Positions 18,652 to 30,333 of a DNA stretch of 45,040 nt are shown here, piece by piece (position 1 is the stretch's first letter; every line of letters starts with the position of its first letter). The stretch lies in the IMG/VR virus record IMGVR_UViG_3300032290_001263, positions 1-45,040 of that record, one strand, 5' to 3'. The notes beneath the pieces are model-generated. The model was not told where the DNA came from, searched no databases, and saw only the letters and a list, made by a program, of their open reading frames with translations. The stretch comes from a virus. Taxonomy: Duplodnaviria; Caudoviricetes. A program made the position numbers and the translations under genes.

Positions 18652-18853
18652 GCTGAGAATTGAAACTGATCGATCCCCCCGAAAGGGGGGATCGTGTGGA
18701 AAGGAAAAAGTTCAGTGGGACGAATGGGCCGACATTGTCGGTCTCGTGGCTAAATGTTAAAGTTATTGTTGACTTATGACGATAAATAGTCTATAGTTGT
18801 TTGTGTCGGGTTCGGGAGTGCCGAATCGACAAAGGCTCCTTTTAAGGAACTTG

Positions 18854-19099
18854 ATGATGGCAAATTTGGTTGTTGTTAAGAAGGTTTGGATTGAAGCAGA
18901 GGATCTTGTGTTGGCTCTTTTGGCATTAAATAGACACGGTACAAAAATACTGCCAGACCTTCTTCCTTATGAAATGTACTGCATCGAAAAGGAAATTGGT
19001 TTTAATATCACCGAATTAAATCGGTTATACAAGAATTTTCCGAGAACCGTAGTGGCATATCCGGATGGAGATGATTTTATTAGGAATCCATTGGTATAG
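18854..19099 (+). CDS. Hypothetical cassette protein
   Basis: ATG after AAGGA RBS, downstream of promoter 18769. Confidence 0.65.
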   Translation: MMANLVVVKKVWIEAEDLVLALLALNRHGTKILPDLLPYEMYCIEKEIGFNITELNRLYKNFPRTVVAYPDGDDFIRNPLV

Positions 19100-19265
19100 C
19101 ATTCAGTCAGCAAAAAGAAAAAGTCGGTTCATCTGTATGGGTGGGCCGACTTTGTCGGTCTCGGCTAGATATGTTAAAGTATCTCTTGCATTGTGTCGAT
19201 ATATATAGTACGATGTTAGCAGTCCGGTAGTTCCGGTAGTTAGTTTCTCAGAAAGGATTCTGATC

Positions 19266-19400
19266 ATGCGTTTAGTTGTTTTGTTGGCTTTAGTATCTTT
19301 GGTAGGATGCCGTGCTATAGATAAGGTAGCTCTAAAGGCTATACCTAAAGATCATGGCAAGTATGAATTCGCAATAGAATTTACGCCTACCAAGGATTAG
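19266..19400 (+). CDS. Small lipoprotein (44 aa), not in ORF track
   Basis: MRLVVLLALVSLVGCRAIDK...; lipobox LVGC; AGAAAGGA RBS; own promoter at 19186. Confidence 0.7.
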   Translation: MRLVVLLALVSLVGCRAIDKVALKAIPKDHGKYEFAIEFTPTKD

Positions 19401-19572
19401 TATAAGATCGATAGGTCGGCCCTGAATCTGAAAGGAGGATGGGCCGACTTTGTCGGTCTCGTGAAGAAATATTGTAGTTAGCTATTGCATTATGTCGAAT
19501 ATATGGTAGATTGGTTTGTGTTGGGTTTGGGAGTTCCAAGCCAACAAAAGTTTTTTCGAAAGGGTTTGAAAT

Positions 19573-19896
19573 ATGTCGCAAGTAGCTTACAGCGAATTTG
19601 TAGGAATGGCATCGTTGGCGAATACACTAGGCAAGATGATTGCAACACTTGAACCTGAACAAATGGTTGAAGCGTTCTTGCTATCGCAAGGTGTCCGCAA
19701 CTGCATTGCATACGATTTTGCAGAGAACGGCGTAGAACTGCATCTCAAAATGCAATGGATTTTTGCAGAATTCAAAGACAATCCCGGAGTTTTTGATATT
19801 GCAATCTGGAATGCAATCGATGATCATGATGTTGTGATTGCGTGTTGTGCAATTGTAGATCGGCATAAACGAGAACATGCAGAACATCCAGAATGA
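19573..19896 (+). CDS. Hypothetical cassette protein
   Basis: 107 aa between promoter 19485 and terminator 19919. Confidence 0.75.
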   Translation: MSQVAYSEFVGMASLANTLGKMIATLEPEQMVEAFLLSQGVRNCIAYDFAENGVELHLKMQWIFAEFKDNPGVFDIAIWNAIDDHDVVIACCAIVDRHKREHAEHPE

Positions 19897-19918
19897 TTCC
19901 TGTAACAACAAAACAAAT

Positions 19919-19950
19919 ACCGGCCCTGCTTCGGCGGGGTCGGTTTTTTT
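19919..19950 (+). terminator. Intrinsic terminator
   Basis: CCGGCCCTGC-TTCG-GCGGGGTCGG plus T-run; near-identical hairpin at 21634-21661. Confidence 0.85.
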
Positions 19951-20261
19951 ATGCATTGATAGTGTGAGAATGGGCCGACATTGTCGGTCTCGTCCTTGAG
20001 TCAAAGTGCTAAGAATTGACAAACTATTCAAGGTGTGGTAGAATAGGCGGATCGTAGGTAGAGTAGGTATAATCGTTAAAATAGGTATAATCGATAAGAT
20101 GTTTAAGATCGTTAATGTTTCTGTTACTGTTAAATGCGATGGATGGGCCGACTTTGTCGGTCTCGTCCCAAAATGCTTGACATTTGAATTTAATATGCTC
20201 TAATGTTTATATCGCTGGTCAACGTGACCGGCAAACAACGGTTTAGTTAAGGGTTACAGTT

Positions 20262-20690
20262 ATGAAAATGTCGCAAGTGTTGGCAATTCCTCACAAAATC
20301 ATCGATTCGGTTACACCTGAATCTTTTGCAAAAGACACTGGGGCTTGCCTAGTGATCGGCAAAAGAATGATCAAGGATTTGACAACGGAATCTGGATTCG
20401 TTGAGACAGAAAAGGTTATGCCGATTCTTTCGCTGATTCCAAAGCAGAAAAAACGAAAGCTGACCGAATCTTCGGTCAAATTCGATACAACCGGAGAACG
20501 AAAGATCATTGATAGCGATTCCGAAAGAGCAAAGCGAATCGAACGATACCGAGCGATGGCTGAGCAAGGCCCGATTGAAGATCGATTCGAGGAAAACGAA
20601 CGCGAACTGATCAAGAAACAAATCACGTTCTGCGATCTAGCTCTCAAGGCCGGTTGGATGCAAGACGAGGAATTCGAAGACGACGAATAA
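20262..20690 (+). CDS. Hypothetical protein, paralog of 21802-22152
   Basis: 142 aa, acidic C-terminus; promoter 20177; terminator 20716. Confidence 0.8.
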   Translation: MKMSQVLAIPHKIIDSVTPESFAKDTGACLVIGKRMIKDLTTESGFVETEKVMPILSLIPKQKKRKLTESSVKFDTTGERKIIDSDSERAKRIERYRAMAEQGPIEDRFEENERELIKKQITFCDLALKAGWMQDEEFEDDE

Positions 20691-20715
20691 TCGAAGTCTG
20701 ACCAAGTCTGAATCG

Positions 20716-20739
20716 CCCCCCCGAAAGGGGGGGTTTTTT
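20716..20739 (+). terminator. Intrinsic terminator (C-run-GAAA-G-run family)
   Basis: CCCCCCC-GAAA-GGGGGGG-TTTTTT; same type at 18671, 21202, 22177. Confidence 0.85.
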
Positions 20740-28630: not shown

Positions 28631-28784
28631 CGATAGAAGTCTGCCTTATAAAATGGGCCGACTTCGTCGGCCTCGCCGGAGTCAAGCGAAATCTTTCTTT
28701 TTTTTATTTCGACACAATCGCTTGACAATGACGATCTGTATGTTAAAATAATTGCATGAGACGAGACGATTACTAAGGAGATGA

Positions 28785-29000
28785 TTGATGTATGTTGTTG
28801 TTAGAACAGGTGAAGAGCCTAATGATGTTATTGTTTACAGGGGTGGAAATAACTTTGATGAAGCAGTTTTAGCTGCAAAGATAAGATTTCCAGAACTGCT
28901 AAGTCTAGAAGGAGATGATTTAGAGCATTTTAACGATTTTGGAGAATACACTAATACTTCACAGTGTTTTACTATTAACATTTGCTTGATATACAAATAG
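28785..29000 (+). CDS. Hypothetical cassette protein
   Basis: 71 aa, AAGGAG RBS, promoter 28722. Confidence 0.7.
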   Translation: MMYVVVRTGEEPNDVIVYRGGNNFDEAVLAAKIRFPELLSLEGDDLEHFNDFGEYTNTSQCFTINICLIYK

Positions 29001-29006
29001 ATTCAT

Positions 29007-29079
29007 GGGATCGTAGCTCAACGGTTAGAGCAGGGGACTCATAATCCCTTGGTTATCGGTTCGAATCCGGTCGATCCTA
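29007..29079 (+). tRNA. tRNA with CAT anticodon (probably Ile2, alternatively Met)
   Basis: GGGATCG/CGATCCT acceptor, GCTC/GAGC D-stem, GGGGA-CTCATAA-TCCCT, ATCGG-TTCGAAT-CCGGT; no encoded CCA. Confidence 0.9.
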
Positions 29080-29227
29080 CTTGACATACCGAAAAGTTTT
29101 GGTATAATAACGATACAAGAACAGCAGGGCTTGGATAACTCAGTTGTTTTTGCGAGGCTAGCTACCTCTCGCGAATATCCTGACCGCGACTAAATATTCA
29201 GGTGCAACGTTACCTCATTTTGTTGCA

Positions 29228-29298
29228 TTCGCTTCTGGTGTATATTGGTGACGCAACCCGTTACGGGTGGAGTGTAGGTTCGATTCCTACAAGCGAAC
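29228..29298 (+). ncRNA. tRNA-like RNA with shortened anticodon arm
   Basis: TTCGCTT/AAGCGAA acceptor, GTAGG-TTCGATT-CCTAC T-arm, ACCCG-TTA-CGGGT arm (13 nt instead of 17). Confidence 0.7.
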
Positions 29299-29326
29299 TT
29301 GTTTTATATCTTTTGAGAGGAAAACT

Positions 29327-29683
29327 ATGTCTAGCTGGAAAAACATTCGCGGAAAACTGCACATCGATATTTCAGAACTATCGGTTGAGTGCCGAGATTT
29401 AGTTTCAGGGCTAGTTAGCGAGCAAGATTGCGAGCTAACAATTGAGTTTTTGTCGTCTGGTTACTATACTCCGGCACAAACATACGGCCCGCCCGAAAAT
29501 TGCTATCCGGAGGAAAGTGACGAAGAACGTATTTTTGATTGTGCTACTATTAGTGGTAGAGCAATCCCGCAAGAAATTGGAGAAAAACTTTTCGATCTAT
29601 TGACAAATAAGATCGATGAAGTACAATTAGACTATAGCGAAGACCCAAGAGAATTTGAAGGAGATTGGTATGTCGAATATTGA
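29327..29683 (+). CDS. Hypothetical acidic protein (YGPPENCYPEE motif)
   Basis: ATG 29327 after GAGG. Confidence 0.7.
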   Translation: MSSWKNIRGKLHIDISELSVECRDLVSGLVSEQDCELTIEFLSSGYYTPAQTYGPPENCYPEESDEERIFDCATISGRAIPQEIGEKLFDLLTNKIDEVQLDYSEDPREFEGDWYVEY

Positions 29684-29921
29684 GCTTAGTTCAGAACAAC
29701 TGTATTCTGTTATTTACGATGACGATAGAAACGTGTTGTATCCAGAATGCTACCTAATGAACGGTAGTCAGGTTCTAGCAACTGTAAAACTATTTGGTAC
29801 TAGTTGCGGTGTAAGTTATGGCTTTGAAGAACCAGAGTCAGACACTAGAAAACATTGGATTGTCTATAACATTGTTATGGAAAATAATAAGCTCTTCTCA
29901 GATTCTTACCAAAGGATGTAG
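29670..29921 (+). CDS. Hypothetical protein
   Basis: ATG after AGGAG, overlaps upstream gene. Confidence 0.6.
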   Translation: MSNIELSSEQLYSVIYDDDRNVLYPECYLMNGSQVLATVKLFGTSCGVSYGFEEPESDTRKHWIVYNIVMENNKLFSDSYQRM

Positions 29922-30155
29922 GTGACTGCTATGGATCTCATAACGCTAGAAGAAGTCGGAGTTAGATATGTTCATTGTGAAGCAAGTTTCTATTCTCCGG
30001 GCTATACAGTTTGGAAACTTAGAAGATGCAATCTAGAATATGGATCAACTGATACATGCTATGTTGCAATATTAGGGACAAATACTTCCGATAAGTTCAT
30101 TAAGCTTTTAAGTTATTGGAATCGCACAGAAGAATGGGTTTACGGCCCGGCGTAG
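29922..30155 (+). CDS. Hypothetical protein
   Basis: 77 aa abutting upstream stop. Confidence 0.55.
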   Translation: MTAMDLITLEEVGVRYVHCEASFYSPGYTVWKLRRCNLEYGSTDTCYVAILGTNTSDKFIKLLSYWNRTEEWVYGPA

Positions 30156-30333
30156 ATTGATTGATTTATAATTCTAAGCCTATCCCTAATCTTTGGGATG
30201 GGCCGACTTTGTCGGCCTCGCTACATATATTTTACCCTTTTATTATCTATCCTACCGGTGGCTGTTAATTCAGCTTTCTGTTAGGAATGTTTATCCATTG
30301 GGATAATCACCGGTTAGATAATATCTTATTGCA

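Follow-up and report, generated by a model that had tools for sequence, protein, structure and literature searches.

A phage array of small gene units delimited by a near-invariant dyad, with unit exchange at probable composite repeats

Introduction

A 45-kb fragment of an uncultured lake phage from IMG/VR (record IMGVR_UViG_3300032290_001263, Caudoviricetes; 29% complete according to CheckV), analysed here over its whole length of 45,040 nucleotides and hereafter called the window, contains an array of 18 units lying between 19 copies of a 21-bp dyad motif (Table 1). This layout raises the question of what the dyad is for. A first-pass annotation, made from the sequence alone, had proposed either a site at which self-contained cassettes are swapped or added, with integron-like logic, or the operator of one regulator controlling the earliest genes. 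We compared the array with those of close relatives, one of them complete, and of lake strains. We consider it fairly probable that the small units form a variable region shaped by general recombination at composite repeats, in which the dyad likely serves as a protein-binding site. The exchange and operator readings are not mutually exclusive.

Dyad conservation and promoter-linked spacing

All 19 copies, where shuffled sequence gives 0.03, were confirmed on the plus strand, 18 being exact and one carrying a single mismatch, at copy-to-copy distances of 173-1545 bp. Even with up to three mismatches allowed, no further copy was detected in the rest of the window. An alignment of 54 copies from four contigs (19 from the window, 18 from the relative G002, 15 from the complete relative G001 and two from G003, after one copy at the end of the G003 contig had been dropped) revealed that 15 of the 21 positions (2-8, 12-16 and 19-21) are invariant in all 54; the variable positions are the loop, position 1 and position 17. 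The dyad is directly preceded by a GRRT tetramer, conservation stops at position 21, and the flanks vary. According to the base at position 17, the copies fall into a T and a C class, which form two unbroken blocks, T first, in all three long arrays (window, G001 and G002).

A promoter-like site follows 18 of the 19 dyads, copy 19 having no forward promoter within 140 bp. The single fixed spacer described in the first-pass annotation has to be replaced by several set, promoter-linked distances: from the dyad end to the -35 box we measured 22-23 bp in seven T-class copies and 11 bp in copy 5, compared with 46-47 bp in nine C-class copies and 84 bp in one. The 22-bp spacers keep their length at a mean identity of 42% (35% for shuffled sequences), while the 46-bp spacers are 63% identical (shuffled, 40%). 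Further downstream in the window, 17 forward promoter-like sites carry no dyad.

In nine of the 11 C-class copies the pentamer GTCAA follows the dyad by 5-6 nt and precedes the forward -35 box by 35-37 nt. The same 36-nt gap separates the -35 boxes of an intact, dyad-free pair of back-to-back promoters, and dyad copy 15 abuts a complete leftward promoter that had been overlooked in the first-pass annotation (Table 1). The C-class module, we infer, goes back to a pair of promoters set back to back, the leftward half of that pair being overlaid by the dyad. Two perfect leftward promoters (30605-30809) face the right end of the array.

Units gained, lost and moved among relatives

An exact scan of IMG/VR for the motif returned 31 loci, with four array contigs and eight contigs holding a single match, the latter taken as chance. 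Contig 3300033571_010386 is the window's own sequence, covering positions 11035-32930 at 99.98% identity. In G001, a complete genome of 168.8 kb, all 15 copies lie inside one 9-kb block, so that the array remains the only location of the motif when a full genome is considered. G002 has 18 copies, and the G003 contig ends after three. No copy was found in the 111 kb of G009, which looks like the continuation of the G002 genome. G002 and G001 are about 95-98% identical, their shared units mostly 93-99%. For the comparison of strains we used contigs from eight of 23 matching runs (X1-X8) at 90-92% likeness, a setting that permits joints from other organisms; X1 is a possible source of the window itself. 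Six of the seven independent runs compared carry a lake or freshwater metagenome label.

Whole units distinguish relatives and lake strains from one another, and the dyad holds most of the crossovers that could be mapped, in agreement with the proposal of modular exchange at the motif. In window numbering, the units of G002 run 0,1,2,3,4,5,6,8,X,Y,Z,9,11,13,16',15,17,18 and those of G001 0/1 fused,2,3,4,7,5,8,Y,9,11,13,14,16',15,18. G003 is 98% identical in the flank, and two other units open its array; the virion-gene flank is colinear between G001 and G002 at 98% with one break. Unit 7, located between units 6 and 8 in the window, lies between 4 and 5 in G001 and is absent from G002. A distant kinase-like homolog of the unit 16 gene (32-34% identical) precedes unit 15 in G001 and G002, while unit 16 follows unit 15 in the window. 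Unit Y is missing from the window and present in G001, G002 and runs X3, X4 and X8; unit 12 is absent from G001, G002 and run X4; unit 14 is absent from G002 and cleanly deleted in run X7; and G001 lacks dyad copy 1.

The gene of unit 1 is replaced in six of the eight runs (X2, X4, X5, X6, X7 and X8), the left joint falling just inside the gene and the right joint on the first base of dyad copy 2. An extra unit stands ahead of unit 1 in X2, X3, X5 and X6, and unit 6 holds a different gene in X2, X3, X5, X6 and X8, with both ends away from the dyad. Deleted or circular units joined at the motif had been suggested as a check: a deletion is present in the contigs (unit 14 of X7), whereas an extra unit accounts for the only backward joint. 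Several lake strains also carry 137 additional bases at 28757-28769 and 343 at 30695-30698, with no dyad near.

Position of the crossovers

Between the arrays of G002 and G001 there are nine gaps of at least 100 bp, six of which have a crossover interval in or abutting a dyad. In motif coordinates these intervals are -2 to 23, 1 to 21, -1 to 0 (defined by two markers only, with more diverged flanks), 1 to 16, -5 to 22 and -1 to 23. Since the dyad with 3 bp on either side makes up only 11% of the non-coding DNA of the array, six of nine greatly exceeds the chance expectation (binomial p roughly 1e-4). The other three gaps are a promoter-to-promoter deletion, by which G001 lost unit 0, and two changes inside units. 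When the window is compared with G001, the crossover of unit 10 maps to -4 to 21 of the dyad, and that of unit Y to the terminator, in a 16-nt identical run. The joint of the unit-14 deletion in X7 (24563/25180) is confined to the final 10 nt of the dyad, with at least 255 letters on each side. In X4 the unit-12 joint is in the AT-rich spacer, 36 nt beyond the dyad, and the unit P crossover lies 26-33 nt from the motif start. Several crossover intervals overlap at dyad positions 12-16, and the exact in-register identity of adjacent joints is 10-29 bp.

Six of 19 ungapped junction tests (window unit 10 against G002, unit 7 against B6, unit P against G002, unit 16 against G002, the kinase unit and the unit 6 tail) were not counted, being out of register or lacking true parents. 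Two ungapped tests of unit 12 place the switch near the -10 box. A loose end in X3 that connects the tail of unit 6 with copy 8 is backed by only 16 letters on one of its sides and was treated as weak. Mis-assembly is an unlikely source of the strain joints, because the exact in-register repeats of at most 29 bp are shorter than the 31-mer with which the contigs of these runs were presumably assembled, and because several of the forms recur across studies.

The small-gene region just downstream, which is free of dyads, provides a direct comparison: between G009 and G001 it has 12 gaps of at least 100 bp in 9.9 kb, against nine in 11.9 kb for the array. The dyad directs the position of crossovers and does not raise turnover. 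That a dyad-free neighbour turns over as fast is the main result disfavouring a dedicated shuffling platform.

Recombination enzymes and candidate regulators

The first-pass annotation had seen no recombinase in the window, and this absence extends to the complete relative, in which we found no site-specific recombinase. Six-frame searches of G001 gave no Phage_integrase, Y1_Tnp or Resolvase match, with positive controls. The tyrosine recombinase family PF00589 matched none of three records including G001 (controls 14/14), nor did PF01797 (Y1; controls 10/14) or PF00239 (Resolvase), whereas PF07508 (Recombinase) gave one sub-threshold match (E 0.027) in the virion block of G001. The Pfam scans covered 134 open reading frames (ORFs) of G001, taken from 192 of at least 90 amino acids (aa), together with 97 of 110 small ORFs; the PHROGs scans covered 82. 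Matches comprised a RecA/UvsX-like protein, two single-stranded DNA-binding proteins, a PD-(D/E)XK exonuclease, an endonuclease VII-like protein, a helicase, a primase and DNA polymerase III alpha. Most G001 ORFs match no family, which leaves room for an unrecognised enzyme or one borrowed from the host. RecA and ribonucleotide reductase of G001 carry inteins or homing nuclease domains.

These Pfam and PHROGs scans of G001 ORFs returned no convincing regulator, and none of the scanned ORFs could be identified as a dyad-binding protein. The matches of this kind are one weak helix-turn-helix match that is also HNH-like, a sigma-like protein and a phrog_624 DNA-binding match, none of them tied to the dyad.

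Other dyads in distant relatives

Distant relatives were found through a flanking gene at 41-53% identity, and none of the five records examined carries this dyad. Among 76 distant loci, 13 have at least three copies of a different dyad type, which lie upstream of promoters where inspected. At L178, L212, L213, L233 and others a GC-rich core stands beside TAAGTC...GACTTA-type dyads, upstream of promoters and at the same locus as the array. The hexamer GHCGAT, which resembles one arm of the window dyad, is located between the -35 and -10 boxes of 184 of the 289 promoter-like sites of distant loci (L170-L245), where two would be expected; in the window, GHCGAT-like motifs (18305, 18769, 19186, 19485, 28722) occur mainly in the first four promoters. 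A phage-sigma promoter inside the dyad was considered and is not supported.

A model for the array and its alternatives

We propose that host sigma-70 would read the predicted promoters right after infection, and that each joint, consisting of a terminator or hairpin, the dyad, an AT-rich spacer and a promoter, would behave as a composite repeat. Crossing over of two such joints, within one genome or between co-infecting strains, would delete, add or move the intervening unit and leave the genes unbroken. The general recombination machinery of the phage would use the dyad as the longest stretch common to neighbouring joints, and the same exchanges would homogenise neighbouring copies into the T-class and C-class blocks. 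A phage protein, probably a dimer reading the two arms, would bind the dyad and co-regulate these promoters; the simplest ways would be to turn them down once the first burst is over or to stop transcription from running leftward. The spread of crossovers over terminator, AT-rich spacer and promoter is the pattern that PMC2839356 reports for the promoter-early stem-loop (PeSL) cassettes of T4-type phages.

Of the two earlier proposals, the operator would fit the invariance and the promoter-linked spacing of the dyad, although the scanned G001 ORFs gave no protein for it; modular exchange at the motif is supported by relatives and lake strains, whereas a dedicated, integron-like swapping site is not: in the complete relative no site-specific recombinase was found, crossovers have no single point in common and also use terminators and promoters, and turnover is not above that of the dyad-free region. 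Several points weigh against the combination of general recombination and a bound protein. Stretches of 10-29 bp are short for RecA-type recombination, and the crossover intervals presume that the sampled genomes represent the true parents. No dyad-binding protein emerged from the scanned G001 ORFs, where only the matches listed above were found, and consensus promoters need no activator. Common descent together with gene conversion could produce both the invariance and the fixed spacing: the C-class spacers, at 63% identity, copy the 36-nt gap of the intact back-to-back pair. Helical phasing of dyad to promoter was also considered, and the spacing steps of 11, 24 and 22 bp fit no single clean series.

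In another reading, in our estimation unlikely, the dyad has no function of its own and is a passenger linker, having spread together with promoter modules as these were duplicated and being held uniform by unequal crossing-over and gene conversion. The two contiguous sequence classes of each array, the C-class geometry shared with the dyad-free promoter pair, the dyad-free promoter-like sites downstream, the loss of copy 1 in G001 and the absence of the motif from the five distant relatives would all follow from it. It sits poorly with the sharp edges of conservation, with 12 inner arm positions that are constant in 54 copies although the loop varies, with T-class spacers that are stable in length while nearly unrelated in sequence, and with other lineages keeping other dyads in the same slot. 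Alternatively, the dyad might act as a folded hairpin, in single-stranded DNA, as a cruciform or in RNA, with a role for instance in processing, insulation or replication; a structure-specific nuclease that nicks such hairpins could also turn it into a recombination hot spot. In all three stem variants (position 1 G/A, 17 C/T, 18 C/T) the plus strand retains pairing of the G-T type, the loop of the last copy is flipped to its reverse complement (AAA in G001 and G002, TTT in the window), five tested neighbourhoods fold as DNA (z -2.3 to -4.7), and ERCC4 and endonuclease VII-like genes are present. Yet any palindrome folds, there are only three independent variants and no compensatory change, and little transcript is expected from T-class copies, which sit between terminator and promoter; moreover, inner positions intolerant even of wobble changes point to a reading of the sequence itself, so we find the hairpin quite improbable.

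A dedicated recombinase, of an unrecognised family or borrowed from the host, might cut the dyad as duplex or hairpin and move units in an integron-like manner without attC. The site is polar and nearly invariant, six of the nine G002/G001 differences fall on it, the X7 joint lies inside a 10-nt stretch, several intervals overlap at positions 12-16, and unit 7 has been relocated, which tandem duplication and loss can also achieve. There is, however, no single cut point, the B8 event mapping left of the dyad (with weaker markers) and the X7 event to the right of the loop; a number of events do not involve the dyad at all, the dyad-free region has more differences in less DNA, and complete G001 gave only the sub-threshold Recombinase match. 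We therefore regard this explanation as very doubtful. A bolder extension of the operator, to which we attach a small probability, is that one unrecognised phage protein both controls the first-expressed genes through the dyad and steers recombination. The array would then be an integrase-free cassette platform whose ready-to-express units circulate among strains, related aquatic phages having lineage-specific dyads. Over these alternatives we favour general recombination at composite repeats as the likeliest mechanism, and protein binding as the likely reason why the dyad is preserved.

Units and their cargo

The window has a minus-strand block reaching up to 18109, with genes for terminase, cement protein, ClpP, GDP-mannose dehydratase, an ERCC4 nuclease and a small sigma-like protein. 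After it the plus strand is occupied by small genes without known family, a region that the array begins, back to back with the virion genes. The unit plan of the first-pass annotation is correct in outline and too uniform, because spacers differ and terminators close only some units: plus-strand terminator-like hairpins are found at the ends of units 3, 5, 6, 7 and 8 of 18, with one more inside unit 17, and are missing from most units of the right half. Nor does one small gene per unit describe units 17 and 18, which have internal promoters and more than one element.

Table 1. Features of the array and its surroundings in the window
Feature	Position	Strand	Remarks
Small sigma-70 region 2-like gene	17645..18109	-	Flanks the array; first gene of the minus-strand block
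Array, 18 units between 19 dyad copies	18726..30220	+	GRRT-RGGCCGAC-NNN-GTCGGYCT-CG
Dyad copies 1-8, T class	18726..21699	+	Position 17 = T, loop ATT/TTT; starts 18726, 19143, 19441, 19972, 20145, 20772, 21256, 21679
Unit 1 gene	18854..19099	+	81 aa, no family
Unit 2 gene	19266..19400	+	44 aa; signal peptide and LVGC lipobox; candidate lipoprotein, judged from its sequence
Unit 4	19993..20144	+	Promoter and ORF-less AT-rich stretch with short tandem repeats; kept in three genomes
Unit 5 gene	20262..20690	+	Paralog of the unit 8 gene (21802-22152), 37% identity
Unit 7	21277..21678	+	
Unit 8 terminator-like hairpin	22176..22205	+	Crossover site for extra unit Y
Dyad copies 9-19, C class	22231..30220	+	Position 17 = C, loop mostly TTC; starts 22231, 22746, 23136, 23640, 24048, 24553, 25169, 26684, 27333, 28655, 30200
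Unit 12	23661..24047	+	
Unit 14	24574..25168	+	92-aa gene and ribozyme match
Twister-sister ribozyme match	25000..25075	+	40.9 bits, cut-off 34; 46.4 bits in G001
Leftward consensus promoter	25190..25217	-	12/12; -10 box abuts dyad copy 15
Unit 15 gene	25372..26577	+	401 aa, DUF932-like / phrog_1362
Unit 16 gene	26814..27308	+	164 aa, kinase-like lead
Unit 17 candidate non-coding RNA	27436..28004	+	About 520 nt; own promoter and terminator; no conserved ORF
tRNA within unit 18	29007..29080	+	CAT anticodon
Back-to-back promoter pair	30718..30809	.	Dyad-free, intact; 36 nt between the two -35 boxes, as the gap in C-class spacers

The empty unit reported earlier is unit 4, ORF-less in the window and conserved in three genomes; it may represent a small RNA or an origin primed by a transcript. 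Its tandem AT-rich repeats hold -10-like boxes, and it lies near the cumulative GC-skew minimum (about 18 kb). The DUF932-like cargo was corroborated by a Pfam match on the copy of a relative (E 7e-4) and by Atlas (0.97). The kinase-like cargo is to be treated as a lead only, with an Atlas assignment to T7 gp0.7-like kinases (0.93) and no Pfam match. The twister-sister match, overlooked in the first pass, lies directly 3' of the unit-14 stop codon and is gained and lost with that unit. The unit 17 stretch is a candidate new non-coding RNA: its predicted fold has a z of -2.1, it is 77% identical in G002 with four compensatory pairs in the two-sequence fold, it has no Rfam family, and an exact 22-nt scan found it in this clade only. 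Outside the array, a tRNA-Ile(TAT) was detected at 31616-31690 and weaker tRNA-like matches at 38394-38488 and 38569-38680.

G001 carries an RNA repair set of Ro60/TROVE, RNA ligase, RlaP-like and Thg1 genes (L039 16361-17935, L041 4768-6959, L043 445-1158), and four dispersed phrog_17693 paralogs in its dyad-free variable region (L038 13675 to L039 9279). No close cultured phage is available: the best GenBank phage matches of TerL are only about 26% identical, to Bacillus phages. Exact matching of the 25-nt form of the dyad to GTDB genomes gave no match, in a set that may not include the host. Five contigs of metagenome-assembled genomes, under four unrelated taxon labels, contain a gene related to one of the flanking genes and look like binned phage contigs. 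Searches with three flanking or cargo genes and with the candidate-RNA stretch returned only the same few close contigs and no further arrays; in a metagenome scan for a 20-nt pattern, covering 1 of 64 parts, the 80 loci listed out of at least 120 are all single matches.

Comparison with known systems

Integrons rely on IntI, attI and attC, cross over at one fixed base, and mostly hold promoterless cassettes read from one promoter. The array resembles them in its tandem, same-direction units, gained, lost and reordered at repeated boundary sites. It differs in that no tyrosine recombinase was found, each unit has its own promoter-like site and the crossover intervals share no one point; as for attC-like sites, there is no Rfam match apart from tRNA and ribozyme. 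The ends of IS200/IS605 elements and REP/RAYT hairpins are processed by HUH Y1 enzymes, with IS608 exchanging just 3' of TCAA. A short GC-rich hairpin, a conserved tetramer 5' of it and, in the C class, TCAA shortly after it are common to these and the dyad, whereas no Y1 transposase was found in the complete relative. Exchange of the IS608 type after TCAA is not supported: GTCAA lies at about position 27, and five mapped C-class crossovers stop at position 23 or earlier, to its left. One G002 junction, read by eye, switches near TGTCAA. The pentamer is better explained as a leftward -35 box.

The closest parallel is provided by PeSL cassettes (PMC2839356, PMC4122927). Both systems have small genes without known family, each with a near-consensus sigma-70 promoter and a stem-loop, in a variable region, and both gain and lose genes among close relatives at varying points of a composite repeat. 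PeSL crossovers fall at several places in the repeat, and mini-circles were shown by inverse PCR (PMC2839356); for the present array there are assembled contigs only, with the one backward joint already accounted for. The phage is not of the T4 type, as its TerL and the DNA polymerase III alpha encoded by G001 indicate. Conservation is here highest in a separate, nearly invariant dyad, which also receives most of the crossovers and stands at set distances from the -35 box, its copies all being gathered in a single block. Terminators are lacking at about half of the joints, plus-strand terminator-like hairpins closing five of the 18 units. The array thus works like a PeSL array and is not a strict member. 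The open literature that we searched, with most subscription papers outside the search and supplements not covered, contained no description of this motif or phage, and a term search of bioRxiv 10.1101/2024.10.15.618418 found PeSLs and repeats not mentioned.

For the operator half, plasmids offer models. In the CUP regulon of IncN plasmids, same-direction units are each headed, as in the array, by a repeated module with a promoter, which there also has a regulator site, and recombination of CUPs rearranges the region (PMC5371602). Reg576 controls establishment genes of p576 that act on entry into a new host (PMC6294495). Both are leading regions of plasmids for which the repressor has a name (ArdK, Reg576), whereas the array belongs to a phage and has another palindrome in 15-19 copies. 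Among phages, phi29 p4 has sites among early and late promoters (PMC2731898).

Significance

PMC2839356 leaves open whether PeSL shuffling is a side effect of general recombination or is assisted by a protein that binds the site. In the array the candidate site is distinct from promoter and terminator, there are natural strain variants whose crossovers can be mapped, and its dyad-free neighbour serves as an internal control; that mechanistic question therefore becomes testable. If the dyad were only a passenger, the array would add one more example of PeSL-like modularity beyond the T4-type phages. It also points to a putative dyad-binding protein, and it marks where this lineage loads cargo likely to act in host takeover or counter-defence: the DUF932-like and kinase-like proteins, the ribozyme and the candidate new RNA.

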